Shown here: positions 2,038 through 62,976 of the stretch, piece after piece
Numbering within the stretch: the stretch's first letter is position 1
Layout: each line of letters starts with the position of its first letter
Origin: Shigella phage SHFML-26
Reading direction: 5' to 3' (one strand)
Sequence record: KX130862
DNA length: 64,000 nt
Made by a program: the position numbers and the translations under genes
The notes under the pieces: generated by a model
Database searches by the model: none
Told to the model about the DNA's origin: nothing
What the model saw: only the letters and a program-made list of their open reading frames with translations

Positions 2038-2540
2038 TTAAAAGTATTTTTTAAAACTCATCATAACTTTATCATCAACATCATTATCAATCTGTGCAAC
2101 AAGGTAAGATGACAATTCTACTTCTTGTGGCGCAGATTGAACATTATCAGAATTAAGATATTCACGAATCCAAGGATATGGATGTTTAACCGGAGCATCG
2201 GTAATTGGGCATGGAAGACCACACTGCTTCATACGAGATACAGTTAAGTAATCAATAAAGCTCCACATGCTATTTGTATTTAATCCAGGAACATCTCCAT
2301 CTTTAAATAAATGAACTGCCCAATCTTTTTCTTGGCGGTTAACTTCCATGAAAATATCAACTGCTTCTTGTTCACACTCTTGAGCAATTTTAACCCATTC
2401 ATCGCCATCAGTACCAGATTGAAGTTGACGAATAATATATTGGGTGCCTTTAAGGTGAAGCTGCTCATCACGCGCAATGAACTTCATAATCTTAGCATTA
2501 CCTTCCATGATTTCCATATTCTTATGGAAGTTAAAGGTAC
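2038..2540 (-). CDS. nrdB: ribonucleotide reductase small subunit NrdB, exon 2
   Basis: MEIMEGNAKIMKFIARDEQLHLKGTQ... RNR beta C-terminal half; joins exon 1 in frame (676+503 nt = 393 codons). Confidence 0.85.
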
Positions 2541-3630
2541 CGTATGTTCGATTGAGCTCGCTAATTCTCAACCCGTTCTCTTATGAACTGCTGCATGTTA
2601 CCATGCAGTCCAGACTATATCACAATCCCGGAGGGATTCTCCCCATTTCGAGTCGCTTGACCCTACGTCCGAAGACTAGTCGTTGAACCTTGTTTTGCAA
2701 TTGTCGCCGTGCCATCGTTTATATGTTGATGGTGATAAATCTTTCTTATCACAATATGGACAATTCAATTGAATTCTATTTGGATTTAATTTACATCTGT
2801 CATTATGTTTTAGATAAAATCCAGGACCTTTACCAATGTGACCACAGAAATCACATGTGATTTCTTTTTGTGCAGGATGGGTCCCGTTCTTAACCATTTC
2901 TAATGTTTTTGCTGATGTTCTTTTCTTATGGTCTTCTGATAAGAAATGATGTGAACCGTCATTTACCCGTTTTGATTGAGTTTCTGACTGCATTTTACCA
3001 CCGCAAAATACATGAGTACCTTCTTTTATAGCTGCAATATTGCGTTCTTTAACTTTTGCAATATGCTCAGCTTGTTGAAAATTATGTATACCTAATGCAG
3101 CTCTATTTAAATTAGATTTACGCTGTATTTCACCATCTAAAAGATGAAATGTACCATTTTCTATCTTAGATTTAATAGAGGCAATATTTTTAGCTCGTAC
3201 TTCAGGGATATTAAAAATCTGGATTTCTCTAGATTTTGCGGCTTTAGAAGCTAATTCAGAAATTTCTTCAGGAGAATATTTCATTCTAAGCTTTATAGCA
3301 TGACAAGCCTGGTAATCTTTTTGAGCTAAATGTATATCATAATGTTCCTGTATAGAAAGGCACATCAAATTATCTAAATCATTATTTTCACGGTTACCGT
3401 CTTTATGATGGATTTCGTATGTTCTTCCATCAGAATCTTTAGGTATAGGTCCGTTAGCATCTATCCAAATTTTTCTATAGTTCAATTGTGCATCCTCTTA
3501 AAAGTATAATCATATTTATATTATACTAATTAAAGGTGCAAGCAAAACCTTGGCTGCTAGTTTTCCTATAAAGGACTTTCCAGCAATTAAAGGAGTTTTC
3601 GATAAACGTTACCGTTTAAAGGCGCATTTT
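2541..3630 (-). mobile_element. group I self-splicing intron in nrdB (about 1090 nt) carrying I-TevIII
   Basis: Exon 1 ends on U, intron ends on G; 3' core (approx 2571-2690) resembles the td intron 3' core at 8081-8225; contains an HNH endonuclease ORF. Confidence 0.8.
2676..3485 (-). CDS. I-TevIII: HNH homing endonuclease I-TevIII, full length (269 aa)
   Basis: Intron-encoded ORF with HHKDGNRENNDLDNLMCLSIQEHYDIH HNH motif and C-terminal Cys-rich zinc-finger-like region. Confidence 0.85.
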   Translation of the reverse strand: MNYRKIWIDANGPIPKDSDGRTYEIHHKDGNRENNDLDNLMCLSIQEHYDIHLAQKDYQACHAIKLRMKYSPEEISELASKAAKSREIQIFNIPEVRAKNIASIKSKIENGTFHLLDGEIQRKSNLNRAALGIHNFQQAEHIAKVKERNIAAIKEGTHVFCGGKMQSETQSKRVNDGSHHFLSEDHKKRTSAKTLEMVKNGTHPAQKEITCDFCGHIGKGPGFYLKHNDRCKLNPNRIQLNCPYCDKKDLSPSTYKRWHGDNCKTRFND

Positions 3631-4306
3631 ACGCAAAAGATACATAAAAACGAATTGCTTCTAAGGCATTAATAACGTGCAAACAGAGGTAAAGAGATTT
3701 CATTAAAGCACGTTTAGCTTCGGCTTCTTGTTTAATAGCTCGGTTTAAACGAAAATCGGCATCAGGAGATTCTTTAGCTAGTTCTACAAATTCTTTAGCA
3801 TTTTCCCATTCACGGGTTTTAATCAGAACGTCATCATAATAGCGTCCAATGGATTCAGCACGTTTCATAATAGCTTCATCTAATACAATCTCATCAAATA
3901 CCTTTGACGGATCAGTATAAAGATTTCGCATGATATGTGTATATGAACGGCTGTGAATAGTTTCACTAAAAGTCCATGTAGCAACCCATGTATCAAGACT
4001 CGGGTCTGAAATTAATGACATAAGTACAGCAGACGGCGCACGACCCTGAATGCTATCTAAAAGTGATTGATACTTCAGGTTGTTAGTAAAAATATTTTGC
4101 TGGTACTGAGGAAGCTTATTAAATTGTGCAGCATCCATCATCAAGTTTACTTCTTCAGGACGCCAAAAAAATGATAAAGATTTCTCAATAAGTTCTTCAA
4201 ATACTCTATGTCGTTGAATATCATATCGAGCTAAACCCAATCCAGAACCAAAAAACATCGGCTCAGTCAAAATATTAACAGGGGATGTATTAAAAACTGT
4301 ACTCAT
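3631..4306 (-). CDS. nrdB: ribonucleotide reductase small subunit NrdB, exon 1
   Basis: MSTVFNTSPVNILTEPMFFGSGLGLARYDIQRHRVFEEL... ending ...RFYVSFA then T of the split Cys codon; track ORF stop TAA lies in the intron. Confidence 0.85.
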
Positions 4307-4944: not shown

Positions 4945-7208
4945 TACAATTTACACGCTGCACAATCGTCGGCTTTAGGAGTTTCTATTTCATAATCATC
5001 AGTACCAGAACCATCACGGGTATTATGATAATAGAAATTTTTAATGCCATAATACCATCCGTATAGCATGTCATCAATCATTATTGACATTGGAACCTTG
5101 CCTTTAGGGAAGATTTGGGGGTCATAGTATGTATTCGCCGAAGCTGATTGACAAACCCATTTCAGCATAATAGCTACCTGCGTAAGATAAGGTTTATTAC
5201 CTTTCTTAGCTAATTTCCATGTATAATCATATAGGTCTATGTTATGCTCAATATTGGGCACGACTTGATTAAAGGAGCCCTCTTTTGATTCTTTAACAGA
5301 GACTGGTCCACGTGGAGGCTCGATACCGTTTGTACTGTTAGAAACTTGGGAAGATGACTCACATGGCATAAGTGCTGATAATGTGCTATTACGGATGCCA
5401 AAGAGCTTAAGGTCTTCCCGCAGCGACGACCAGTCACAAACGTATTTTGGAGCTGCGATTTGGTCAATCTTTTTATTGTACCAGTCGATAGGTAATTCGC
5501 CTCGAGACCAACGAGTGTCTGAATAATATTCGCAAGGTCCTTTTTCTTTGGCGAGCTTAATGGATGCTTTAATGAGTCCATACTGTAATCTCTCAAATAG
5601 TTCATGTGTTAAATCGTTAGCATCTTCATAAGAAGCAAAGTTACTTGCCAACCAAGCTGCATAGTTGGTAACACCTACACCAAGGTTACGACGCTTTTTA
5701 GCTTTTTCTGCTTCAGGAACTGGATATCCTTGGTAATCCAACAGATTATCAAGAGCACGAACTTGAACTTCTGCCAATTCATTAATTTTATCTTGGTCTT
5801 GCCAGTCAAAATTATCTAGTACGAATGCAGAGAGAGTACACAATCCAATTTCAGCATCAGGACTATTCACATCATTTGTTGGAATAGCAATTTCACAGCA
5901 CAAGTTACTCTGACGAATAGGTGCCTTTTCACGAATAAACGGAGTATAGTTATTCGTATTATCAATGAACTGTACATAAATTCTTGCTGTTCCTGAGCGT
6001 TCAGTCATGAGCAATTCAAATAGTTCACGGGCTTTAATACGCTTTTTACGAATATTAGGGACTTTTTCTGCTGCTTCGCATAATTCACGGAAACGGCTTT
6101 GGTCTTTAAAATAAGAATAATAAAGCTCGCCACCCATTTAATGTGGACTGAACAAAGTAATGTAATCGTTCTTTCCGAATCGTTCCATCATCAAATCATT
6201 CAGTTGAACACCATAATCCATATGACGAATGCGGTTTTCTTCTACGCCTTTGTTATTTTTCAAAACGAGAAGATTTTCAACTTCCAAATGCCAAATAGGA
6301 TAATAAGCAGTAGCAGCGCCGCCACGAATTCCGCCCTGTGAACATGAGTTAACTGCAGCCTGAAAATGTTTCCAAAAAGGAATAACACCAGGATGGCATA
6401 CATCACCCATGCCAATCTCAGAACCTTCGGCACGAATCATACCAACGTTAATACCAATTCCAGCGCGTTTAGAGATATATTCAACAATTGAAGCGGAAGC
6501 CTTATTGATAGACTTCAATGAATCACCTGCCTCAATAACAACACATGAACTAAACTGTCGAGTCGGAGTACGGCAACCAGCCATAATAGGAGTTGGCAAT
6601 GAAATCTGTCGAGTAGATACTGCTTCATAAAAACGGATAACATGTTTTAATCTATCAACAGGTTCATCTTGATGCAATGCCATTCCAATAGTCATAAATG
6701 CAAACTGCGGAGTTTCATAAATTTGACCGGTGGTTTTATCTTTGACTAGATATTTTTCTTTTAATTGCATCGCTCCGGAATAAGTAAATTCCATATCCCG
6801 CTCGTGCTTAATTTTTGATTCTAAAAATGTAATTTCTTCCGCAGAATATTTTGACAATAATTCAGGGTCATATTTACCTTCATTTACACAGTAAGAAATA
6901 TGGTCAATAAATGAACGTGGTTCATACTGCCCATAAACATGCTTACGAAGAGCAAACATTAAACAGCGTGCAGCTACATATTGATAATCAGGTTCTTCAA
7001 CCGAAATAGAATTCGCAGCAGCCTTAATGACAATAGTCTGAATATCATCAGTTGTCATTCCATCACGGAGATAAGATTTAATATTTTCATATAATTCATA
7101 AGGATCTACTGATGTTCCTTCAGCTGCCCAAGATAAAACTTTAATAATTTTTTGTGGGTCAAAGCTCTGAGAAACACCACTACTTTTGATAACATTAATT
7201 AATTGCAT
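4944..7208 (-). pseudogene. nrdA: ribonucleotide reductase large subunit NrdA, reading frame interrupted by in-frame TAA at 6138..6140
   Basis: Track ORFs 6138..7208 (356 aa, ...LFSPH*) and 4944..6137 (397 aa, MGGELYYSYF...) are one RNR alpha frame split by a single stop codon; 356+1+397 = 754 codons. Confidence 0.85.
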
Positions 7209-8077: not shown

Positions 8078-9093
8078 CATTATGTTCAGATAAGGTCGTT
8101 AATCTTACCCCGGAATTATATCCAGCTGCATGTCACCATGCAGATCAGACTATATCTCCAACTTGTTAAAGCAAGTTGTCTATCGTTTCGAGTCACTTGA
8201 CCCTACTCCCCAAAGGGATAGTCGTTAGGCATTTATGTAGAACCAATTCCATTTATCAGATTTTACACGATAAGTAACTAATCCAGACGAAATTTTAAAA
8301 TGTCTAGCTGCATCTGCTGCACAATCAAAAATAACCCCATCACATGAAATCTTTTTAATATTACTAGGCTTTTTACCTTTCATCTTTTCTGATATTTTAG
8401 ATTTAGTTATGTCTGAATGCTTATGATTAAAGAATGAATTATTTTCACCTGAACGATTTCTGCATTTACTACAAGTATAAGCAGAAGTTTGTATGCGAAC
8501 ACCGCACTTACAAAACTTATGGGTTTCTGGATTCCAACGCCCGTTTTTACTTCCGGGTTTACTGTAAAGAGCTTTCCGACCATCAGGTCCAAGTTTAAGC
8601 ATCTTAGCTTTAACAGTTTCAGAACGTTTCTTAATAATTTCTTCTTTTAATGGATGCGTAGAACATGTATCACCAAACGTTGCATCAGCAATATTGTATC
8701 CATTAATTTTAGAATTAAGCTCTTTAATCCAAAAATTTTCTCGTTCAATAATCAAATCTTTCTCATATGGAATTTCTTCCAAAATAGAACATTCAAACAC
8801 ATTACCATGTTTGTTAAAAGACCTCTGAAGCTTTATAGAAGAATGGCATCCTTTTTCTAAATCTTTAAAATGCCTCTTCCATCTCTTTTCAAAATCTTTA
8901 GCACTTCCTACATATACTTTATTGTTTAAAGTATTTTTAATCTGATAAATTCCGCTTTTCATAAATACCTCTTTAAATATAGAAGTATTTATTAAAGGGC
9001 AGTCCTACAATTTAGCACGGGATTGTCTACTAGAGAGGTTCCCCGTTTAGATAGATTACAAGTATAAGTCACCTTATACTCAGGCCTCAATTA
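8078..9093 (-). mobile_element. td group I self-splicing intron (1016 nt) carrying I-TevI
   Basis: Intron begins UAAUUGAGGCCUGAGUAUAAGGUGACUUAUAC... right after exon 1 GGU and ends ...CUGAACAUAAUG; matches the T4 td intron as recalled. Confidence 0.9.
8225..8962 (-). CDS. I-TevI: GIY-YIG homing endonuclease I-TevI (245 aa)
   Basis: MKSGIYQIKNTLNNKVYVGSAKDFEKRWKRH... GIY-YIG N-terminal domain, Zn finger and C-terminal DNA-binding region; inside the td intron. Confidence 0.9.
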   Translation of the reverse strand: MKSGIYQIKNTLNNKVYVGSAKDFEKRWKRHFKDLEKGCHSSIKLQRSFNKHGNVFECSILEEIPYEKDLIIERENFWIKELNSKINGYNIADATFGDTCSTHPLKEEIIKKRSETVKAKMLKLGPDGRKALYSKPGSKNGRWNPETHKFCKCGVRIQTSAYTCSKCRNRSGENNSFFNHKHSDITKSKISEKMKGKKPSNIKKISCDGVIFDCAADAARHFKISSGLVTYRVKSDKWNWFYINA

Positions 9094-9641
9094 ACCCAAG
9101 AAAACATCTACTGATCGTTGATACCACTGAAGGTCAAGGTATCCATTACGCACATTAAACTGATAGAACATATGACAAGGCGGTAATGCCATATATTTAA
9201 GTTCAGCTGGATTCCATGCTGAAACAATTTGACGCCTATCATTTGGCAGTTTTTTAATACGATCAATAACTTCTATAATTTGGTCTACACCGCCAAAATC
9301 GCGCCATTGTTTTCCATAAATTGGACCAAGTTCACCGCTATGGTATCCTAAATCTTTTGCTTGATTTTCGTAATTTTCATCCCAGACTGTTTTGCCTTGG
9401 ATTAACGAATCATGCTGAATTAATCGTAAATCATTGACATTTGTGCTTCCCGATAAAAACCATATTAGCTCAGCAATGCAAGCTTTCCAGGCGAGCTTCT
9501 TAGTTGTTACTGCAGGAAAACCTTTAGTTAAATCCCAGCGTAATTTAGTACCGAACAAAGCAATTGTTCCTGTGCCTGTTCGGTCATCGGTTTCGTAGCC
9601 ATTTTCCAGGATATCTTTAATTAAAAATTGGTATTGTTTCA

Positions 9642-11372: not shown

Positions 11373-11496
11373 ATTAGCATTTGATGAACTAATATCAATG
11401 AAAGATTTAATACGATGTGGATTTAACTCGTATTTTTTGTCCGATTTCCATTTGGATTTTCCTCATTTTAATAGGGGCTTAATAGCCCCTTGATAA

Positions 11497-24551: not shown

Positions 24552-25334
24552 ATGGCAGTAGTTGGAGTTCCTGGCTGGATTGGAAGTTCAGCCGCAAATG
24601 AAACAGGACAACGCTGGATGAGTCAAGCGGCTGGTCAATTAAGATTGGGTGTTCCTTGCTGGATGAGTCAATTTGCAGGTCGCTCACGAGAAATTATTCA
24701 CACGCTTGGAGCAGACCATAACTTCAATGGTCAATGGTTCCGAGATAGATGTTTTGAGGCAGGTAGTGCACCTATAGTGTTTAATATCACTGGAGATTTA
24801 GTATCATATTCTAAAGATGTTCCTTTATTCTTCATGTACGGAGATACACCAAATGAATATGTTCAGTTAAATATACATGGCGTAACGATGTATGGACGTG
24901 GCGGTAATGGTGGTAGCAATAGTCCTGGCTCAGCTGGAGGTCATTGTATTCAAAACGATATTGGTGGGAGACTAAGAATTAATAATGGTGGAGCTATTGC
25001 TGGCGGCGGTGGCGGCGGTGGCGGCGGATATTATTCTCCTTTTTCACGAATGAGATTAACCTTTGGCGGTGGTGGTGGGCGTCCGTTTGGTGCACCTGGC
25101 GGATCTATTGATATGCAATCAGGCGCAACTGCTGGTACTATTTCTGCACCTGGCTCAGGATCCGTGAATGGTATCTATAATGGTGGAAACGGTGGTGAAG
25201 TAGGTTCCGCGGGAGGTAGATGCAATATTCGCGGTCAAGGATCTGAATATAATGGCGGCGCTGCTGGTTATGCTGTCATAGGGTCTGCTCCAACGTGGCA
25301 AAATGTTGGAGCAATATATGGTCCAAGAGTATAA
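24552..25334 (+). CDS. 38: gp38 receptor-recognising adhesin (T2-type, glycine-rich motifs)
   Basis: 260 aa [33 protein letters not shown]... with [11 protein letters not shown] and [14 protein letters not shown] glycine-rich motifs; unlike the short T4 gp38 chaperone. Confidence 0.85.
25002..25028 (+). repeat. (GGC GGC GGT)x3 simple repeat encoding the poly-Gly tract of gp38
   Basis: Direct trinucleotide repeat within gp38 coding sequence. Confidence 0.6.
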
Positions 25335-33568: not shown

Positions 33569-34507
33569 TTATTTAAATTGTTCAGTAACGTCTTCAACTA
33601 CTTCGTATTGGCAGGTACGCATTTTAGCATCGTTGTAATCAATCGGAATTGATACTACATCGCGAGGATGAACTTTAACTTTTACAACTCGGCTGGTTGA
33701 ACTACCAAAGTGACGAATATAAGATTTAGAACACACATGCAGACCGCGAGAACAAGTCTGTGTATCATCGTCATTCACACGAGTACGTGGCATTTTAACT
33801 ACTTTACCCGGACTGTTATCAAAGGTGTTTGAGTGACAGTCAAAGTAATTGCTGCGAACTACTTTCCAAGCATAGAAGTAGCCATCTTCTGTAATTTCAA
33901 TATCGTTTGCTACCAAGAAATCAAAGAGTCGAGATACCGCTTTTTGGCTTGGGTTTTCCAACAGATTTTCCAAGAACGGAAAATAAAATTCAAAGTTTTC
34001 GCCTTTTTCCATCGAGTCAAGAATACGATCAACCAAACCAGACCGCAATTCAATATTTTGATAGAACAAGCTTCCACCTTCAATTCGAACATCGCCGGAA
34101 ATATATTTTTCAACAGCGCGACGAACATTAATTTTTTGTGCAGCTTCTTCCAGCTTATCTGCTACAAGCAGATTAAGAATTTCCTGGAAGTTTGAATGAG
34201 TATTAGGAGTTGCGTTATAAGTTACACCGTCAACAGTAATTGAAATGAATTTTTTAGATGCATTCCAAATAATGTCAGATTTAGCAACTGGAGCAATAAC
34301 TGCATCGCTATTAACTTTAACTGTAATATCACCGCTAATAGTAACTTTAGGGCGTTTAGCTTCTTCAGCATTTTTCAAAACACGACGGATTGTGTCAACC
34401 GATACATCCTTCCAATAAGCCAATTCCTGTTGGGTGTAATTACCACTTGAATACAGTTTAACAATTTCAGCTTGTTCGTTTTTGGTCAGGCATTTAATAT
34501 TGTACAT
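33569..34507 (-). CDS. rIIB: rIIB protein
   Basis: 312 aa MYNIKCLTKNEQAEIVKLYSSGNYTQQELAYWKDVSVDTIRR... Confidence 0.95.
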   Translation of the reverse strand: MYNIKCLTKNEQAEIVKLYSSGNYTQQELAYWKDVSVDTIRRVLKNAEEAKRPKVTISGDITVKVNSDAVIAPVAKSDIIWNASKKFISITVDGVTYNATPNTHSNFQEILNLLVADKLEEAAQKINVRRAVEKYISGDVRIEGGSLFYQNIELRSGLVDRILDSMEKGENFEFYFPFLENLLENPSQKAVSRLFDFLVANDIEITEDGYFYAWKVVRSNYFDCHSNTFDNSPGKVVKMPRTRVNDDDTQTCSRGLHVCSKSYIRHFGSSTSRVVKVKVHPRDVVSIPIDYNDAKMRTCQYEVVEDVTEQFK

Positions 34508-36964: not shown

Positions 36965-38785
36965 CTACTGACTCATCCATTCTTTACGAAGGTCAGCATT
37001 ATCTCCCATGAGCATTTCAAAAAGCTCTTTCCAGTTCTCAGGAAGTTTAACAACATCATATACTGGGTTTTGAATCATCTCACGATATTCAGATTTTTCC
37101 AAAGAGCCAAGTCCCTTAATATAACGGATGCTATGTTTAGGTAGAGCATCTTTGGCACTCTCATATTCAGCGACTGTATAAAACCATTCTTGTTTTTTAC
37201 CGACCTGAGCGATGATTACAGGAGTTTTGACAAAACGAATTCGTCCTTGCTCAAACAATTCTGGCCAATTACTAAAAAATCCGAGCAGAGAAGGATAAAT
37301 GCTTCCTAGACCATCATGGTCAGCATCAGTCATAATAGCAATATTATGATAATTCAAGTTTTCAGCTTTTTCACCGAGAACTAATCCAGTGATTGCGCAA
37401 ATATCAAACAGTTCTTTGTTTTTAAGCATATCTGCATAAGACATACCCCAACTGTTGAGAACTTTACCGCGCAATGGATAACCACCGTGAAGTTCTTTAT
37501 CACGAACATCAATAAGATATCCGATAGCAGAATCACCCTCAGTCAAGAAAAGAGTAGTATCAGCATCTTTACCGCAAAGATTCGCTTTGATATGTTTATG
37601 AACCTTAGCTTTAGAAGCCTTTTTAGCTGCTTTAGTTTCTGCTGCTTTTTCTGCCGCCAATTTACGAGCCAAAGCAGCTTCAATAATCGGCATTAGAATT
37701 GCTTCATTATTTAGAATAGCACGTGAAATCTTTTTAGCATCAAGCTGAATATGACTACGGATTTCACCAAATGGAGAAGTCAAACGCTCTTTAGTTTGAG
37801 AATCAAATCGCATGTTTTTCATATCACGGACAAACATAACGATAGTCAAACATTCTTTAACGCGTGCTTTAGTCACATCAATTTTGAACTTACGTTTGAT
37901 TTGTGGAATAAGGTCTTCACAAATATCATCCATAACACAGTCAATGTGATGGCCACCATTCTTAGTGTGGATGTTATTCACATAAGTTAATTGACGAAAT
38001 CCATCCGGTGAACGACCAACTGCAATAGAACAATTTTCTTGTTCTTGAACAATAGCATGCTCATCATATTGGCGTGCATATTTCTTAAAATTGCCCTGAA
38101 CCTTTTTACCATTAAAGGTAAATTGAATATCAGGATAAACTACTGCAAGTGTCTGGAGACGATCTAATGTAATGTCAAGATAAACTTGGGACAGCTCATT
38201 AGTTTCAAATGACATAAAATCAGGAATGAAAGTAACACGAGTTCCTTTCCATTTTCCAGGAATATCTTCCCATGATTTATTTTCCATGCCATTTGAACAA
38301 CGAACTACAATATTATTTTGACCATCACCAGTTTCACCGACAAACATCACAGAAAAAATGTTAGTTAAACTAGAACCAACACCGTTCATACCACCGGTGA
38401 CACGTTCTTTATCATCACCGAAGTTACCACCTGCTTTTGGAATAGTCCATGCAGCAACAGGACCAGGAATTTCTTCACCGGTAGGTGTTTTAACCATCGC
38501 TTGTGGAATACCACGACCGTTATCTTCAACTGTTACTTGATTGTTTTTAATAGTAACATTAATTTTATTTGCGAATTTAAACTTAGTACGAATACCTTCA
38601 TCTACTGAGTTATCGATAATTTCATCAATAAGCTTAACAAGACCAGGTACATACTGAACACTTTCCCATTTACCAAACAGAAAGCGCTCATGCATTTCAT
38701 TAGCTGAAGAGCCAATGTACATGCCGCTACGCTTTTTGATATGTTCAATATCACTCAGAATTTTAATTTCATTCTTAATCATCAC
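36965..38785 (-). CDS. 39: DNA topoisomerase II large subunit, uninterrupted (covers T4 gp39 plus gp60 equivalent)
   Basis: 606-aa GyrB-like ORF MMIKNEIKILSDIEHIKKRSGMYIGSS... running through the TOPRIM/C-terminal region without the gene-60 split. Confidence 0.9.
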   Translation of the reverse strand: MMIKNEIKILSDIEHIKKRSGMYIGSSANEMHERFLFGKWESVQYVPGLVKLIDEIIDNSVDEGIRTKFKFANKINVTIKNNQVTVEDNGRGIPQAMVKTPTGEEIPGPVAAWTIPKAGGNFGDDKERVTGGMNGVGSSLTNIFSVMFVGETGDGQNNIVVRCSNGMENKSWEDIPGKWKGTRVTFIPDFMSFETNELSQVYLDITLDRLQTLAVVYPDIQFTFNGKKVQGNFKKYARQYDEHAIVQEQENCSIAVGRSPDGFRQLTYVNNIHTKNGGHHIDCVMDDICEDLIPQIKRKFKIDVTKARVKECLTIVMFVRDMKNMRFDSQTKERLTSPFGEIRSHIQLDAKKISRAILNNEAILMPIIEAALARKLAAEKAAETKAAKKASKAKVHKHIKANLCGKDADTTLFLTEGDSAIGYLIDVRDKELHGGYPLRGKVLNSWGMSYADMLKNKELFDICAITGLVLGEKAENLNYHNIAIMTDADHDGLGSIYPSLLGFFSNWPELFEQGRIRFVKTPVIIAQVGKKQEWFYTVAEYESAKDALPKHSIRYIKGLGSLEKSEYREMIQNPVYDVVKLPENWKELFEMLMGDNADLRKEWMSQ

Positions 38786-41041: not shown

Positions 41042-41584
41042 TTAATTCAAAATAGCTACCACTGCACTACGAGGTACTACGCTAAAATCACCTGCATGAA
41101 CAACGTTCAGGAGTTCAACACCATCTTCAATCCATTGGTCTGTTACCCAACCGCAGACGCAAATGAATGGAGTCTTGATAGCAACTGCACGAGTCAAAAG
41201 GTCAGTAGGATCAACTTCTTGGAAGAGGATAAGCTCTGCTTCAAAGACTATAGTTTTAATTACTTCATCATTATCTAAGCGATGTGCTCGAATCACATAA
41301 GCTTTATTCTTATCATGCCAATTACTTTTTGAAAAACTTTTAACCACAAACTCGCCTTCACCAAAAACACTAGTCAATGCTTTATAACCCAAATCTAGTT
41401 CAGTAGTTTTAATTTCAGTTTCAACCAGTTTGTAGGTTTTGCCAATTTCGATGGTCCGAGCAGTCATAAATGTTTCCTTAATTTCTAATGGTTTAATAAG
41501 AGTGCCGTACATGCTTGCTATATCCATATCAAACAGCTTATCTACAGGATTCGGTGTGTATTCAGGATTATAATTAAATTTCAT
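41042..41584 (-). CDS. hypothetical protein (180 aa), paralogue of 40474..40965
   Basis: C-terminal segment CGWVTDQWIEDGVELLNVVHAGDFSVVP. Confidence 0.5.
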   Translation of the reverse strand: MKFNYNPEYTPNPVDKLFDMDIASMYGTLIKPLEIKETFMTARTIEIGKTYKLVETEIKTTELDLGYKALTSVFGEGEFVVKSFSKSNWHDKNKAYVIRAHRLDNDEVIKTIVFEAELILFQEVDPTDLLTRAVAIKTPFICVCGWVTDQWIEDGVELLNVVHAGDFSVVPRSAVVAILN

Positions 41585-49194: not shown

Positions 49195-49400
49195 TACAAA
49201 AAGCCTCTTTTGAATTCAACTTGCTTCTCGCCATAATCATATCGAATCTCTGCATTAAATTCAACAGAACCATCTGCGTACATCATAAATGAATGCACAA
49301 CAACTTCTGTAGACCATGGCTGTAGTTCATATTTCTTCATTACATGCCGTGAAATGATAATATCTAAATCTTCATTTGGTTTAATCCAGCGATTTAACAT
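49194..49400 (-). CDS. hypothetical protein (68 aa)
   Basis: Track ORF. Confidence 0.45.
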   Translation of the reverse strand: MLNRWIKPNEDLDIIISRHVMKKYELQPWSTEVVVHSFMMYADGSVEFNAEIRYDYGEKQVEFKRGFL

Positions 49401-49498
49401 AGTGCTCTCCTCTATAAGATAATTCTATTATACCATACTCATTTTGGAAAGTAAACCGGTAAAATGAAAAAAGGACTCCCGAAGGAGTCCTTGAATTA

Positions 49499-49735
49499 TT
49501 AACCACCTATTTCTGTAGGCGTAAACATTGCAGCATTCTTAGTTTTCCAAGTTGCTGCATCGGAAACTACATCAGAATAAGCTGCTTTTTCTGAAGGAAA
49601 GATTTGATAATGAGAATCTGCAATACGGTGTTCATTTGAATATACATCAAATGCTACAGAAACTTCCATACCTTTAACTTCTTTGCCTTCACCCGCTGGA
49701 TGAGTAAAGGTCTTGATGTTAACGAAACCACCCAT
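49499..49735 (-). CDS. soc: small outer capsid protein Soc
   Basis: 78 aa with the pattern FVNIKTF...KE.SVAF..YS..H.I...HYQ.FPSEKAAYS shared with T4 Soc. Confidence 0.8.
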   Translation of the reverse strand: MGGFVNIKTFTHPAGEGKEVKGMEVSVAFDVYSNEHRIADSHYQIFPSEKAAYSDVVSDAATWKTKNAAMFTPTEIGG

Positions 49736-49774
49736 AATAAACTCCTTTATTGTTTAATTACAGGTGTATTTATA

Positions 49775-49948
49775 TCAGTCTTCAATGAAAACTTGTGCCA
49801 GGAATTCGTGTTCATCTTGAATTTGTTTATATAAAGCCATTACAGCATTTATATTAGAGCTATCTACTTTAAGTTGATAGGCATACCACTCGTATAAATT
49901 AATTAAAGCTTTTTGTCGTCTAATAAATTCTTCTTTGGATATTTTCAT
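49775..49948 (-). CDS. small hypothetical protein (57 aa)
   Basis: Hand-translated; ATG overlaps the stop of 49945..50145 (ATGA). Confidence 0.35.
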   Translation of the reverse strand: MKISKEEFIRRQKALINLYEWYAYQLKVDSSNINAVMALYKQIQDEHEFLAQVFIED

Positions 49949-50145
49949 TTTGAATGCTCTATAATTAATTTTAAGGCTTCTTTACTGACAAAAATTTCAT
50001 CAAGACCTTCTTCTACACCCCAATCAACTACACGAAGCTGATTAGATAAGAGCTCGTATGTGAGCTCCTTGTCATAATTTTTAAATAGCTGGTCAATACG
50101 TTTCTTGTGGGCTTTCTTAAGCTGGCGTTTATTTAAACGAGCCAT
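49945..50145 (-). CDS. hypothetical protein (66 aa)
   Basis: Track ORF immediately downstream of gene 56. Confidence 0.45.
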   Translation of the reverse strand: MARLNKRQLKKAHKKRIDQLFKNYDKELTYELLSNQLRVVDWGVEEGLDEIFVSKEALKLIIEHSK

Positions 50146-50663
50146 TAATAACCTCGGTCTTGACGAGCGAAGTTTTCAGCATTTTTCAGATAATAAAGTT
50201 TAAAGATTTCTTCAGCCGTAAGACCGAGGCCTTGGAACATGTTCAGAACGAAATGAAGAATATCAATCATTTCGAATTTAATTTCCAACTGGTCTTGTGG
50301 AGACAAATCAGTAATCAGAGTTTCACGTCGTTCACCATGTTGAGCTTTCCAAGGCTTCCATACAGCAGATGCATCTTTTTCACCATTGCTCATACCACCA
50401 AGAGAAGTCAATAGTTCGCGGAATTCATCATCAATATAATCTTTCTGATTACGCAGCCAATCAACAACTTCACCCGCAGTAGCCAAATCATCAGGATGAC
50501 GGTTATATTCAGGTTTATCTTTAGCTAAACGAACCTGCAGAGATTTCTGCATATCAAGCATAACTTGCAACGGGTCTTTTTCATCACCGAGAATATCCCA
50601 GTATTCATTTTGAGCTTTATCAGCGCCTTCAATCAGTTGTGAACATTCATTAAAGTATGCCAT
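50145..50663 (-). CDS. 56: dCTP pyrophosphatase (dCTPase-dUTPase) gp56
   Basis: MAYFNECSQLIEGADKAQNEYWDILGDEKDPLQVMLD...EIFKLYYLKNAENFARQDRGY; track ORF trimmed to Met with AAGGAAA RBS. Confidence 0.85.
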   Translation of the reverse strand: MAYFNECSQLIEGADKAQNEYWDILGDEKDPLQVMLDMQKSLQVRLAKDKPEYNRHPDDLATAGEVVDWLRNQKDYIDDEFRELLTSLGGMSNGEKDASAVWKPWKAQHGERRETLITDLSPQDQLEIKFEMIDILHFVLNMFQGLGLTAEEIFKLYYLKNAENFARQDRGY

Positions 50664-50734
50664 TATTTTTCCTTTCAATTCATGGGTTAGTAGATTAATT
50701 ATACAATAAATATATAAAGCAATAAGGAGGATAT

Positions 50735-50935
50735 ATGGTACAAAAATTAATGGCACTTGTTAATGCCATAAAAGGTAATAAAAAACGTATAGCTTTTACT
50801 ATTTCTGCTATGGTAGGAATTTTACTCTGGAATTTTGTTTTATCACCAATTGCTATTGCTCATGGTGTTAATATTCCAGTAATTACTCTTGATACATTCG
50901 TAGATTTAGCATTTGCTTTAGTTGGGTTAATTTAA
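50735..50935 (+). CDS. small hydrophobic protein (66 aa) on the opposite strand
   Basis: Strong SD AAGGAGG 6 nt upstream of ATG; two predicted TM segments; sits in the 56-61 intergenic gap. Confidence 0.5.
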   Translation: MVQKLMALVNAIKGNKKRIAFTISAMVGILLWNFVLSPIAIAHGVNIPVITLDTFVDLAFALVGLI

Positions 50936-56638: not shown

Positions 56639-57487
56639 TTAATCAACTGCTATTGGATGAATAGCATTAAACTTATGAAACGCTTCTGATTTTTCTTTGC
56701 GCGAAACACACATGCGAAGAACCTTTAATGGCTCGTCTTCTTCACCTAATGATTTTCGTTTTTCAATATTAGAAGTTTTCCAACGAGCTTGCTCTGGAAA
56801 CTCTCTATTGATTTGCTCAAGCGCTCTATTATGTTTAGAATTACTACGAATTGAGCTACATCCGCCTGGAGCTTGCGCTTTTCCAGATACAACCAGATAT
56901 TTGAACAAGGCCAAATGCGGATAACCTTGATTAATTAAATTGAGAAATGCATACATATCTTCGCATAAATCAATTTTTCCATACCCAATTTGTTCTGTTG
57001 TAAGTTTTCCAAGGTCATACCAAGTATTCGTGAATCCATATGAATTTTCACGATAATTACCCCAAGATGAAGTAATTTTAAAAATTGGTAAACGAGCATG
57101 ACCATGATAATACCCGCAATCCATGGCATCTTCAACGTATTGAATCAATTCATAGAACTGTTCACGAGTTAGCTGATTAATTTTATCTACGCAGCGACGA
57201 TCATCTTTCTTTCGCATTGAACTCATACGAATAGTAGTATCATCATCAATCATCCAAATTCGTTGACCTGCATACATATCAGTAATTGCTTTACGAGTAC
57301 CAGCAATTCCGTTAACATCATCAGGAATAGTTATAATTTTAGCTCTAGACCCGTAAGCGTCATAATAAGCTTTTTCTTCGTGTTCACGCACTACAATATG
57401 AGGTTCATAATCAGTCGGAAACATATCAAGGGCAGAAACTGCCCCTACGCGTTGATAGCTTGGAATTACGAATTGAATCATTTCCAC
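56639..57487 (-). CDS. putative glycosyltransferase (DXD motif) at the position of T4 beta-glucosyltransferase
   Basis: 282 aa with WMIDDDTT DXD-like motif; does not match T4 beta-gt as recalled; adjacent to gene 42. Confidence 0.5.
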   Translation of the reverse strand: MEMIQFVIPSYQRVGAVSALDMFPTDYEPHIVVREHEEKAYYDAYGSRAKIITIPDDVNGIAGTRKAITDMYAGQRIWMIDDDTTIRMSSMRKKDDRRCVDKINQLTREQFYELIQYVEDAMDCGYYHGHARLPIFKITSSWGNYRENSYGFTNTWYDLGKLTTEQIGYGKIDLCEDMYAFLNLINQGYPHLALFKYLVVSGKAQAPGGCSSIRSNSKHNRALEQINREFPEQARWKTSNIEKRKSLGEEDEPLKVLRMCVSRKEKSEAFHKFNAIHPIAVD

Positions 57488-59195: not shown

Positions 59196-61706
59196 TCAGC
59201 CAAACAGGAAGTCTAACGAAGCTTTTTCTTCATAGTCCATACCTGCCGATTCACACATACCTGCAAGCGGCTTAACAAACGATTTTTGGAACAAAGTTGA
59301 GTAGTCAATCCAAGATAGTACGTCAGAACGAATTTCTTTTGGAAGTTCTGTACCTGATGGCCAAGCAATGCACTTGTCACCAAATGGATTTCCTTCACGT
59401 AATGGAAGAACCATTACTTTATTTCCATCCAAAATTGGAGCTACACCTAAACCACTAACAGCTCGACGATAAGTTAGCACACCACGAATATGGAATGGGC
59501 ATTTAAATCCTGGCCAACCTTTATCATCATATTTCGCTATATCGTTCGCAGTTTTTACTTCAGCAATAACTTTATAGTCAAGTTGACGATATTCTTTCTC
59601 GAAGTTCTTGTAGTATTCTTGGACAGACTCTTCACCTTCCTGAAGAATACGACGAATACTTTCTTCGAGAGCTTCTTGCACCGCTTTTGGTGTTGAACTC
59701 TGCTGAGTTTCCATACCCATGATTTTTAGATGCGGTTCGGCAAATCGCTTATCTTCCATATCATAAACGTTCAGAGCATAACGTTTTTTCGCTTTCCAAA
59801 ATCCACCAACACCCTTTGAACCAAGCGGAGGGCAAGAAATAGCTTCACGGTCCATATGCATCAGATGCTCGCGGTTATTCATATAATCACATAACTCACG
59901 ATATGCAACATCAATCATAGGTTCCATCTTTTTCTTACCAAACTGATTCATGAATTCAACTAAATCATTTTGTTCTTTAAAGCGGTCAAGACCTACTTTT
60001 TCAATTACTTTATCTACACAAACATATACCGAATCAGTATCACCTGCTGCGATGAAATCTTCACCATTAGTTCCACATACTTTATTCAGATATTCATTAA
60101 TTTTGCGAGCAATCCATTGAATACCGACTTGACCGAAAATTGTGATAGCAGTAGCATTTCGCAAATCATAGTAGCGGAAATGAATATTACCAAGAGCACC
60201 ATAAAGACTGTTAATAAGAATTTTACGGTTCAACTGATTTGTGTTAGCAAGTGTAGCAGCTTTTTCACATTCTTCAATCAGACTGTTAAGAACAGATTCG
60301 GTGTAATTCGATAATTCGTTTAAGAAATCATCATTGAACTTAACATATCGTTCAACTTCCGGTTTAGTTGAACAGGACCCTGCGCCTTTCATAATAATCT
60401 TTTTAATAGCTTCGGCATTCATTTCTTCAGCGAACATTTTCTTTTTCCAATCTTTACGCTGGAAAAATACTTTAGCGATTTCCTTTGGAATGATACCTTC
60501 TTGATGCTTATCATACATCCATCCATTCGGAGAACAAGAATATTCATCACTCGGTTTAGGAGCTGTTCCTGCGATATATTCATGAATTGGATGAACTTTA
60601 AACTGCCCACGAATAGTCTCAGGACTAATGTTAACCTGACGAATAATGCTCGGATACAGAGACGTCAAGTCAAAACTCATAATATATCGACGAGCAATTG
60701 GTTTAGGTTCAAATACAAATGCACCCGGAAAACTCTGTTTAACGTGCGAACCTTGTTGAGGAATAACCTTATGTTCACCTTTCAATGAGTTAAAAATAAT
60801 AGCATCCCAAGTTTTAATAGGACTCATTACACCAGAAAAAGGCATTTTAGCATAATAAGACATACTTAAAACTAGATCGATAAACCCGCGAATTTTATCA
60901 ATTGCTTGAACTGATTCTACGTCAATGATGTTATAACTAATGTATCGTTGATGATTAGTCTCACGAAGTTTATTAATAGGACCGTCGTATGGTAATTTAC
61001 CTTTTTTGGTTTCATGTTGAGCAACTGATTCCAAAGAGAATGACGGCAAATTAGTAAATGCGAATTTCTTATACAAATCTAAATAATCAAGAATAGATAC
61101 GCCATCAATAGAATAAATTTCTTTGCTACCGTACATATTTTGAATTAGTTTAGATTTTACCCGACCGATTGGAGAGAAACGTTTCATACTGCGTTCACCT
61201 AGAATCATTTTAACGCGATTCATAATATATGGAACGTCAAACCCCTCAATATTCCAACCAGTAAAAATAGCAGGTCGTTTCTGTTCCCAGAGATTGATAT
61301 ATTCCATGAGCATATCACGCTCATTATCGAATGGCATATAAATTACTCGGTCAAGAATTTCTTGAGGAACTTCATCACCACCTTCACAGTCAAGCTTAGC
61401 AGCTAACTTTGCATCCCATTTTGATACTGAACCGTACATTGAATTCAAAAGGTCGAAAACATAAAAACGATCATCAATTGAATCGTAATGAGTGATAGCA
61501 TCAATTTCATATTCAGCTTTCATTGGGTCAGGAAATTTATCACCAGTAACCTCAATGTCACAGTTAGCTACACGAACAAATTTTCGGTCATAAACAATTT
61601 CTGAACCATACGTATCACTGATATAAGCGAGTTTAAAATCGTTCATACCGAGAGCTTCGAGACCGATGTCTTCCATTCGTTTCATCCAATCTCGAGCATA
61701 TTTCAT
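59196..61706 (-). CDS. 43: DNA polymerase gp43 (ORF as called; canonical N-terminal ~63 codons lie upstream and are interrupted)
   Basis: 836-aa family-B polymerase starting MKYARDWMKRMEDIGLEALGMNDFKLAY..., corresponding to T4 gp43 from about residue 63. Confidence 0.9.
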   Translation of the reverse strand: MKYARDWMKRMEDIGLEALGMNDFKLAYISDTYGSEIVYDRKFVRVANCDIEVTGDKFPDPMKAEYEIDAITHYDSIDDRFYVFDLLNSMYGSVSKWDAKLAAKLDCEGGDEVPQEILDRVIYMPFDNERDMLMEYINLWEQKRPAIFTGWNIEGFDVPYIMNRVKMILGERSMKRFSPIGRVKSKLIQNMYGSKEIYSIDGVSILDYLDLYKKFAFTNLPSFSLESVAQHETKKGKLPYDGPINKLRETNHQRYISYNIIDVESVQAIDKIRGFIDLVLSMSYYAKMPFSGVMSPIKTWDAIIFNSLKGEHKVIPQQGSHVKQSFPGAFVFEPKPIARRYIMSFDLTSLYPSIIRQVNISPETIRGQFKVHPIHEYIAGTAPKPSDEYSCSPNGWMYDKHQEGIIPKEIAKVFFQRKDWKKKMFAEEMNAEAIKKIIMKGAGSCSTKPEVERYVKFNDDFLNELSNYTESVLNSLIEECEKAATLANTNQLNRKILINSLYGALGNIHFRYYDLRNATAITIFGQVGIQWIARKINEYLNKVCGTNGEDFIAAGDTDSVYVCVDKVIEKVGLDRFKEQNDLVEFMNQFGKKKMEPMIDVAYRELCDYMNNREHLMHMDREAISCPPLGSKGVGGFWKAKKRYALNVYDMEDKRFAEPHLKIMGMETQQSSTPKAVQEALEESIRRILQEGEESVQEYYKNFEKEYRQLDYKVIAEVKTANDIAKYDDKGWPGFKCPFHIRGVLTYRRAVSGLGVAPILDGNKVMVLPLREGNPFGDKCIAWPSGTELPKEIRSDVLSWIDYSTLFQKSFVKPLAGMCESAGMDYEEKASLDFLFG

Positions 61707-61895
61707 TGATGGTAAATTTTTGAGGTAGCGCTAGTTTTTACCATAGATGTCTTTGTACTTTGACTCTTCCTTACAATGCCTAAACATAGTTGGAAGATAT
61801 TCTACTTCACGAGTACGTTCCTTTCCGTTTTCATCAATATAACGTTCAACAATGTTATTTCCGACTGTTTCAATAGAGATATAAAATTCTTTCAT
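61707..61895 (-). other. 43: interrupted 5' segment of gene 43 (54 codons, TAG, 8 codons, in frame with the main ORF)
   Basis: Reverse complement encodes [65 protein letters not shown]; coordinates approximate. Confidence 0.6.
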
Positions 61896-61953
61896 AGATA
61901 TTCCTTAGTTTATAGCCCGAGTTATTAGGCTCTTGATATATTATACTCCAAAT

Positions 61954-62196: not shown

Positions 62197-62976
62197 TTAA
62201 TTACCAATCGTATATTTAGGAACGAGTTTCCATTCATGCTTTTGTTTAAAAGAAATAACTCGGAAGTTATTAGTTAAATCTTTCATAAAAGTTCTTTGAC
62301 CAGGAACGATTTCAATCAGTCCCCAATCTTCTAATAGCCATGCAATCGAATCACGACGAACTTCATCTTCTTCTGTCATTTCAACTTGGCGACCATCCAT
62401 ACGAAGCATTTCTTTAAAATGAACGATATAGTGCTTGCAGATTTCAGTCAATCGACGAATCATCTGCTTCATCATTTCAATTTTATCTTCATCGGTCGGT
62501 TGACCGAACGTAATAACTCGGCAGCGTGACTGAAGTGGTTTAATAATACCATCAATATTATTAGCAGTAATAATAATACTGCAGTTTGAACTATAAGCTT
62601 CCATAAAGGAACGAAGATGTCGCTGAGACTCTGCTAACCCTGAGCGGTCAAATTCATCAATAACGATTACTTTTTGACGACCATCAAATGAAGCTGCACT
62701 AGCAAAATTAGTCAAAGGACCACGAACGAAATCAATTTTACAGTCTGATCCATTCACAAACATCATATCAGCATTTACATCATGACACAATGCTTTTGCT
62801 ACAGTTGTTTTACCTGTTCCTGGAGAAGGAGAATGAAGAATAATATGTGGAATTTTACCTTTACTTGTAATAGATTTAAAGGTTTCTTTATCAAAGGCGG
62901 GAAGAATACATTCATCGATAGTAGATGGACGATATTTCTGTTCAAGAATGTGTTCTTTTTCATTTACAGTAATCAT
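62197..62976 (-). CDS. 44: in-frame fusion ORF: clamp-loader gp44 N-terminal ~185 aa joined to RegA C-terminal ~76 aa
   Basis: MITVNEKEHILEQKYRP...SPSPGTGKTT...DEFD...SRC...MIRRLTEICKH then YIVHFKEMLRMDGRQVEMTEEDEV...KYTIGN without a stop. Confidence 0.8.
   Translation of the reverse strand: MITVNEKEHILEQKYRPSTIDECILPAFDKETFKSITSKGKIPHIILHSPSPGTGKTTVAKALCHDVNADMMFVNGSDCKIDFVRGPLTNFASAASFDGRQKVIVIDEFDRSGLAESQRHLRSFMEAYSSNCSIIITANNIDGIIKPLQSRCRVITFGQPTDEDKIEMMKQMIRRLTEICKHYIVHFKEMLRMDGRQVEMTEEDEVRRDSIAWLLEDWGLIEIVPGQRTFMKDLTNNFRVISFKQKHEWKLVPKYTIGN

Follow-up and report, generated by a model that had tools for sequence, protein, structure and literature searches.

An amber-interrupted DNA polymerase gene in the genome record of Shigella phage SHFML-26 is probably a local consensus or assembly error

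In the genome record of Shigella phage SHFML-26 (KX130862; 168,993 bp), gene 43, which encodes the DNA polymerase gp43, is interrupted by a stop codon. We analyzed a 64,000-nt stretch of this record (hereafter the window), in which the minus strand is the coding strand of gene 43 and the gene starts at 61895. The gene keeps its position between regA/43.1 and imm.1, and the 67 nt upstream of it (ribosome-binding site and operator region) are identical to those of relatives. Translation of its open reading frame (ORF) gave 54 codons, MKEFYISIE...KDIYGKN, that are 100% identical to residues 1-54 of T4 gp43. Directly after codon 54, an in-frame TAG (61733-61731) occupies the place of Cys55 and ends this first segment (61731..61895, minus strand). 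The TAG is followed in frame by CGC TAC CTC AAA AAT TTA CCA TCA (RYLKNLPS) and then by an ATG (61706-61704), which is wild-type Met63 and opens an ORF of 836 aa (59196..61706, minus strand) that holds the rest of the gene. This ORF carries the Pfam domains DNA_pol_B_exo1 (E=3.9e-21) and DNA_pol_B (E=5.1e-25), and no Shine-Dalgarno motif was found 5' of the Met63 ATG when the sequence was read directly. Over residues 1-898, the gene 43 product was 98.9% identical to T4 gp43 in a tblastn search with T4 proteins. All 20 relatives compared have a 2,697-nt ORF at this locus, whereas gene 43 of the window fails to form an uninterrupted ORF of ~898 codons.

Direct translation of T4 gene 43 reads ...YGKNCAPQKFPSMKDARDWM. 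In a four-way alignment with T4_ev151, RB18 and RB14, the wild-type sequence AACTGCGCTCCTCAAAAATTTCCATCAATGAAAGATGC stands opposite AACT[A]GCGCT[A]CCTCAAAAATTT[A]CCATCAATGAAA[T]ATGC in the window, and against each of the 20 relatives BLAST opened exactly three gaps, all separate and 1 nt long. The inserted bases, at 61732, 61726 and 61713, are A on the coding strand and T on the plus strand; across 18.6 kb, in which 13 relatives were compared, they are the sole inserted bases private to the window. Insertion no. 1 (61732; T^GC to TAGC), private against 13-20 relatives, makes the TAG, no. 2 (61726) converts CT^CC to CTACC, and no. 3 (61713; TTT^CC to TTTACC) restores the frame, for a net gain of 3 nt. 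Each inserted A comes after a T, and none of the three sits in a homopolymer run. Beside the stop, the window differs from wild-type gp43 by A56R, P57Y, Q58L, F60N, one extra Leu and D65Y (wild-type numbering), the last of which is due to a private G>T substitution on the coding strand at 61700 (GAT>TAT). When random insertion triples were simulated in this stretch, 11% of them yielded an in-frame stop, so that the stop is unremarkable once the insertions are given. An earlier note on this DNA had described the gp43 N-terminus, the TAG, RYLKNLPS and the called Met as lying in one frame, and had attributed the amber codon and the scrambled residues to three single-A insertions, each after a T and unlike homopolymer errors, next to a D to Y change. 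Translation and alignment bear out this description in full, and the T4 gp43 sequence given in the note matches the direct translation exactly. Wild-type relatives do not share the allele, and the alignment with T4 and its relatives thus leaves the description standing.

All three insertions lie inside a native quasi-palindrome (61704..61749), identified by repeat search and by comparison of mutant and wild-type folds, whose 13-nt arms (61704-61716 and 61737-61749) are 85% complementary and 20 nt apart. Insertions no. 1 and no. 2 together turn T-GCGC-T into the perfect palindrome TAGCGCTA (61733-61726), which lengthens the palindrome from 6 to 8 bp. With insertion no. 3, ATGG-T-AAA/TTT-CCAT becomes a perfect inverted repeat of 8 bp, in which TTTACCAT is the exact complement of the upstream ATGGTAAA; the insertion thereby removes the single bulge of the quasi-palindrome, and an 8-bp stem was predicted in the mutant fold only. 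All three insertions therefore raise dyad symmetry, and the 8-bp palindrome and the 8-bp inverted repeat occurred together in 0.4% of simulated random insertion triples, although this statistic is post hoc. Both arms of TAGCGCTA gained a base, and the palindrome is beyond the reach of one template switch because neither of the two changed arms could template the other. The stretch also adjoins the locally most G+C-rich motif, CTGCGCTCCTC.

The allele was confined to this record in the collections that we searched. A 501-nt gene 43 stretch was compared by BLAST with a collection of phage records that does not contain KX130862 itself, and the allele was present in 0 of the 501 matching records; the best match was 98.8% identical and had 498 nt opposite the 501 of the query. 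A 41-nt version of the allele was not found in IMG/VR, and a 36-nt version was not found in collections of metagenome and genome contigs. Natural polymorphism was rejected as an origin after the four changes had been searched singly in IMG/VR, where the matches were only chance ones in unrelated DNA. The exact 54-aa product was present on three ENA contigs, but these proved to be wild-type contigs cut at their ends, one of which goes on with the TG of the TGC codon. Gene conversion from an ectopic donor was likewise rejected, as no second copy of the 24-mer was present in the window at ≤3 mismatches. The ten genomes with an identical UvsX all encode intact gp43 (898 aa), gp44 (319 aa), gp62 (187 aa) and RegA (122 aa).

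The last three of these proteins are affected by another lesion, which lies ~700 bp upstream of the one in gene 43. Relative to T4_ev151, 1,115 bp are absent, from codon ~182 of gene 44 through all of gene 62 to codon 44 of regA. Alignment and Pfam searches showed that what is left is an in-frame fusion of gp44(1-~182) to RegA(45-122), in which the AAA and Translat_reg domains lie within one ORF (62197..62976, minus strand). The junction, CAC to TAT at ~62434/62433, falls at a codon boundary and has microhomology of ≤2 nt. It was spanned by 0 of 504 phage records and was not found in the other collections searched. Gene 45 is intact in the window. The 259-aa fusion has been deposited as 'replication factor C small subunit / clamp loader' (ANN86944.1/YP_009279045.1) and bears the UniRef name 'Translation repressor protein'.

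Gene-by-gene tblastn of T4 proteins against the window indicated that nearly all other genes are intact. Comparison with relatives revealed a patch in nrdA (6061..6419, minus strand) that carries a GAA>TAA change, E357* (6140-6138), and 10 more private amino-acid changes. The stop splits nrdA into ORFs of 356 and 397 aa. This patch holds 12 private changes, of which 11, the stop included, are non-synonymous and 1 is synonymous; 8 of the 12 are at A on the coding strand. The protein segment is 100% identical in four relatives (T4, RB3 and two others). Scans for private indels, in which 4-13 relatives were compared per region, detected a +1 insertion (T on the plus strand) in codon ~4 of frd.2, at 11440; a private substitution lies 14 nt from it (11454). 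They also detected a 1-nt deletion after 53125 at the 3' end of 61.4, which changes DYAEVLK* to DLQKF*. In rIIB, codons ~30-34 (34407-34417, minus strand) contain three private non-synonymous changes within 11 nt (G>D, Q>K, D>Y), and this may be another patch that is blind to selection.

In contrast to these patches, the window as a whole has 204 private substitutions, 153 synonymous and 51 non-synonymous; 150 of the 204 fall at third codon positions, and ~75% are transitions. Two of the 51 in fact belong to a purely synonymous recoding in td (see below). Near-identical relatives exist in nature, such as a gut-metagenome contig that is 99.8% identical over gp34-gp37. Apart from the disruptive events, SHFML-26 is a normal lineage under purifying selection. 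A generally decaying genome under relaxed selection was rejected on the basis of the 75% synonymous changes and 75% transitions among private substitutions, and the same figures ruled out random noise introduced in silico. The disruptive events were clustered: 26 of 40 had a neighbor within 100 nt, where 4.6 were expected and none of 20,000 simulations gave more than 18 (P<5e-5). Judged from these patterns, the gene 43 lesion is one of several short selection-blind patches on a well-selected genome.

Exact matches to SHFML-26 proteins were obtained for the 836-aa ORF (ANN86941.1/YP_009279042.1, deposited as 'DNA polymerase'), the 259-aa fusion, both NrdA halves (ANN86853.1, ANN86852.1) and gp38. 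T2, T4, T6, RB3 and the laboratory strains of T4, all of which are present in the phage collection, were rejected as the source of the window. The 836-aa protein has been placed in a 90%-identity cluster of 8,660 members, the representative and most listed members of which are OpgD glucan-biosynthesis proteins; apparently this is database mis-clustering and not a property of the window. SHFML-26 (ATCC PTA-121236) is one of the five lytic phages of ShigActive/ShigaShield, which is applied at 1e8-1e10 plaque-forming units (PFU)/mL. MiSeq reads were obtained for each of these phages, and CLC Genomics Workbench 7.0.2 served for assembly and annotation at its default settings. An independent pan-genome study of 2021 already dropped the SHFML-26 record for frameshifts and missing core genes.

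The proteins gp43, gp44 and gp62 are indispensable for DNA replication in T4-type phages. SHFML-26 cannot truly be without them, because it has been plaque-purified and grows to high titer on ordinary hosts. We therefore consider it likely, as the most economical explanation, that the sequence deposited as KX130862 is locally wrong in gene 43, through an error of assembly or consensus, and that the lesion is no property of the phage. Most likely, the real gene 43 of SHFML-26 is an ordinary gene of 898 uninterrupted codons that reads ...GKN CAPQKF PSMKDARDW.... A few short stretches may have been mis-built during de novo assembly or consensus calling from the MiSeq reads under the CLC defaults. 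The allele and the junction are both unique to one record and incompatible with a viable lytic phenotype, and other selection-blind lesions co-occur with them on a background of purifying selection. Known frameshift and nonsense artefacts in phage records share these features, with lesions that are unique to one record and hit essential genes although the phage is viable. They differ in that homopolymer-length error is the usual form, whereas here there are clustered, frame-restoring insertions of the same base outside homopolymers and a clean 1.1-kb deletion. The insertions precede C or GC, and the disruptive events lie in slightly G+C-richer contexts (0.40 vs 0.35). These contexts led us to consider residual errors of long-read sequencing (nanopore or PacBio) on DNA with glucosylated hydroxymethylcytosine as a source, which were dropped since the method was MiSeq with CLC.

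Several observations weigh against an error in the record. The error is inferred from the assembled sequence. Same-base insertions outside homopolymers are not a typical error of Illumina sequencing or of de Bruijn-graph assembly. A deletion of 1,115 bp with so little microhomology is hard to obtain by repeat collapse, so that the 44-regA junction, at least, may have been present in real molecules or in chimeric fragments of the library. The gain in dyad symmetry, rare as it is among random triples and post hoc as its statistic is, resembles genuine templated mutation. Moreover, the sister record SHFML-11, which went through the same pipeline, has no private indels in 20 kb. This clean result led us to reject a pipeline-wide artefact, and the problem is specific to KX130862.

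Some of these points would be accommodated if the lesions were real and belonged to defective, helper-dependent genomes in a high-titer lysate, with the assembler having followed the variant paths, an explanation that we regard as improbable. The A insertions would have arisen by template switching in the quasi-palindrome, as in the frameshifts described by Ripley, and the resulting gene 43 null would be complemented in trans by wild type. Consistent with this explanation, the deletion junction lacks a repeat able to mislead an assembler, and the functions of 43, 44, 62, regA and nrdA could all be supplied in trans. Similarly, T4 with replication genes deleted propagates when the genes come from elsewhere (PMC8121543). 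The symmetry of the insertions also fits, in that no. 3 gives the perfect inverted repeat by removing the single bulge, as in Ripley's quasipalindrome frameshifts, and nos. 1 and 2 give TAGCGCTA. However, the change of both arms of TAGCGCTA excludes templating in a single event and is unlike those frameshifts. In addition, the null genome would have had to be in the majority, or preferred by the assembler, simultaneously at unlinked loci (6, 11, 53 and 61-62 kb), and a deletion of ~1 kb should bring no packaging or replication advantage in a phage that packages by the headful. Among the disruptive changes, indels are also more frequent relative to substitutions than is usual in spontaneous mutation. 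A bolder form of the same idea, to which we assign a slightly smaller chance, is that an abundant T4-like 'cheater' genome in the commercial lysate acquired a burst of quasipalindrome-templated +1 insertions in gene 43 and an in-frame clamp-loader deletion, and was captured by the assembler.

An early in-frame TAG in gene 43 makes T4 DNA-negative on a non-suppressor host, and the earlier note had implied a genuine amber or frame-restored mutant. Support for this part of the note was lacking, as SHFML-26 is a plaque-forming lytic production phage whose record is also without gene 62, and the deletion of gene 62 and of parts of 44 and regA is beyond rescue by suppression. That the record represents an engineered or classical conditional-lethal amber replication mutant, grown on a suppressor or complementing host, is very improbable, although the stop is TAG, as in the classical T4 gene 43 ambers, and the 44-regA deletion is in frame and at a codon boundary. 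In those ambers, one base of a sense codon is changed and the gene is otherwise wild type. Here, the TAG replaces a sense codon by insertion, and two further insertions follow, which is neither how ambers arise nor how they are designed; a suppressed gp43 would still have five wrong residues, one extra residue and D65Y. With gene 62 absent and gene 44 truncated in the adjoining clamp-loader deletion, the rest of the genome would not be viable on a suppressor host, and the nrdA stop is TAA (ochre), not TAG. A T4 genome without clamp and clamp loader has been engineered, namely T4del, from which genes 45, 44 and 62 were wholly removed, into which a Cas12a site was inserted, and which was grown on a helper plasmid (eLife 2021, PMC8121543). 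The window resembles T4del as a T-even genome without functional clamp-loader genes, but identity with it was rejected on design: the window keeps gene 45 and 182 codons of gene 44, lacks any inserted site and has a background other than T4. SHFML-26 is a natural isolate and a commercial lytic phage for which no engineering has been described. Escape from Cas12a at a protospacer or its adjacent motif (PAM) was considered and set aside as well; TTTV PAMs lie near the changes, yet they occur every few tens of nt in AT-rich DNA. The three +1 insertions within 20 nt, which restore the frame with altered residues between them, also recall the (+ + +) combinations of Crick and Brenner in T4 rIIB. 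In this case, however, the gene is essential, the shifted stretch opens with a nonsense codon that makes the restoration useless, and there is no evidence of selection.

We give almost no credence to the idea that the sequence is real and functional by recoding, be it through UAG read-through, a ribosomal hop from AAC to AAU, or a two-piece polymerase made of the 54-aa product and a protein reinitiated at Met63. In the bypassing of T4 gene 60, the stop lies directly after the take-off codon, and in the window the geometry AAC-UAG...AAU-UUA places the AAU 15 nt downstream and in frame with the rest of gene 43. Such a match of AAC with the synonymous AAU is easily found by chance in A-rich sequence, and the arrangement occurs in one record only and is absent from >500 relatives, from IMG/VR and from the metagenome and genome contigs. 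No stable structure was predicted (minimum free energy, -8 kcal/mol; z = -0.81), there is no hairpin at the UAG, and TAGCGCTA cannot form one. No tRNA genes, and hence no suppressor tRNA to support read-through, were found within the window, and the want of a Shine-Dalgarno motif before Met63 argues against reinitiation there. Residues 1-120 belong to a folded N-terminal domain in the solved T4 and RB69 structures, and the altered residues of the window lie inside this domain. Even with a functional polymerase, the missing clamp loader would still be lethal. A local error in KX130862 remains our preferred explanation of the lesion.

The window has several other features of note. In td (9130-9142, minus strand), seven private substitutions synonymously recode five consecutive codons, from GGC TAT TTG GAT TTG to GGA TAC CTT GAC CTT, a few nt upstream of a CAACG motif close to where the td intron is inserted; the I-TevI intron ORF (8228-8962) is 100% identical to that of T4. 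The recoding looks natural and is possibly linked to the homing site. The nrdB gene (2038-4306, minus strand) contains an intron with a full-length 269-aa I-TevIII (ORF 2676-3485) that is 99% identical to that of RB3, whereas I-TevIII is truncated in T4. At 36965-38785 (minus strand) lies an unsplit 606-aa topoisomerase gene 39 of the T2/T6 type; gene 60, and hence the 50-nt bypass, is absent, as is mobA. A beta-alpha-glucosyltransferase (56639-57487, minus strand) replaces the beta-gt of T4, which is a T2/T6-type trait, and the gp38 adhesin (24552-25334, plus strand) is of the T2 type. No matches to dam, segF or segA were found at the T4 positions (the loci listed include 49400-50900), and these absences are T2/T6-type traits as well. 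In the motB.1 region, a hypervariable ORF (41042-41584, minus strand) differs from four relatives by many private amino-acid changes and by an indel of net +3 (41455-41459); probably the divergence is natural or the sampling was limited.

A truncated polymerase, a chimeric 'clamp loader/translation repressor' and a split NrdA are present both in KX130862 and in its RefSeq copy. The faulty proteins have already spread into UniRef and protein clusters, and they may mislead screens for core genomes, synteny and recoding. The record of Shigella phage Sf25 (MF327009.1) also calls for caution: its match to the 501-nt gene 43 query is split in two over 645 nt, its annotated NrdA has 837 aa, and the 2021 study that dropped SHFML-26 left it out as well, for frameshifts. 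The SHFML-26 phage belongs to a product under regulatory review as generally recognized as safe (GRAS), and its genome sequence is cited in the safety case. Should the lesions be real after all, they would document that defective genomes dominate a production lysate, and this would matter in practice to the manufacture of phages. As it stands, the gene 43 lesion has small biological weight and is of practical use in curation, as a warning on KX130862 and on the RefSeq and UniRef entries derived from it.

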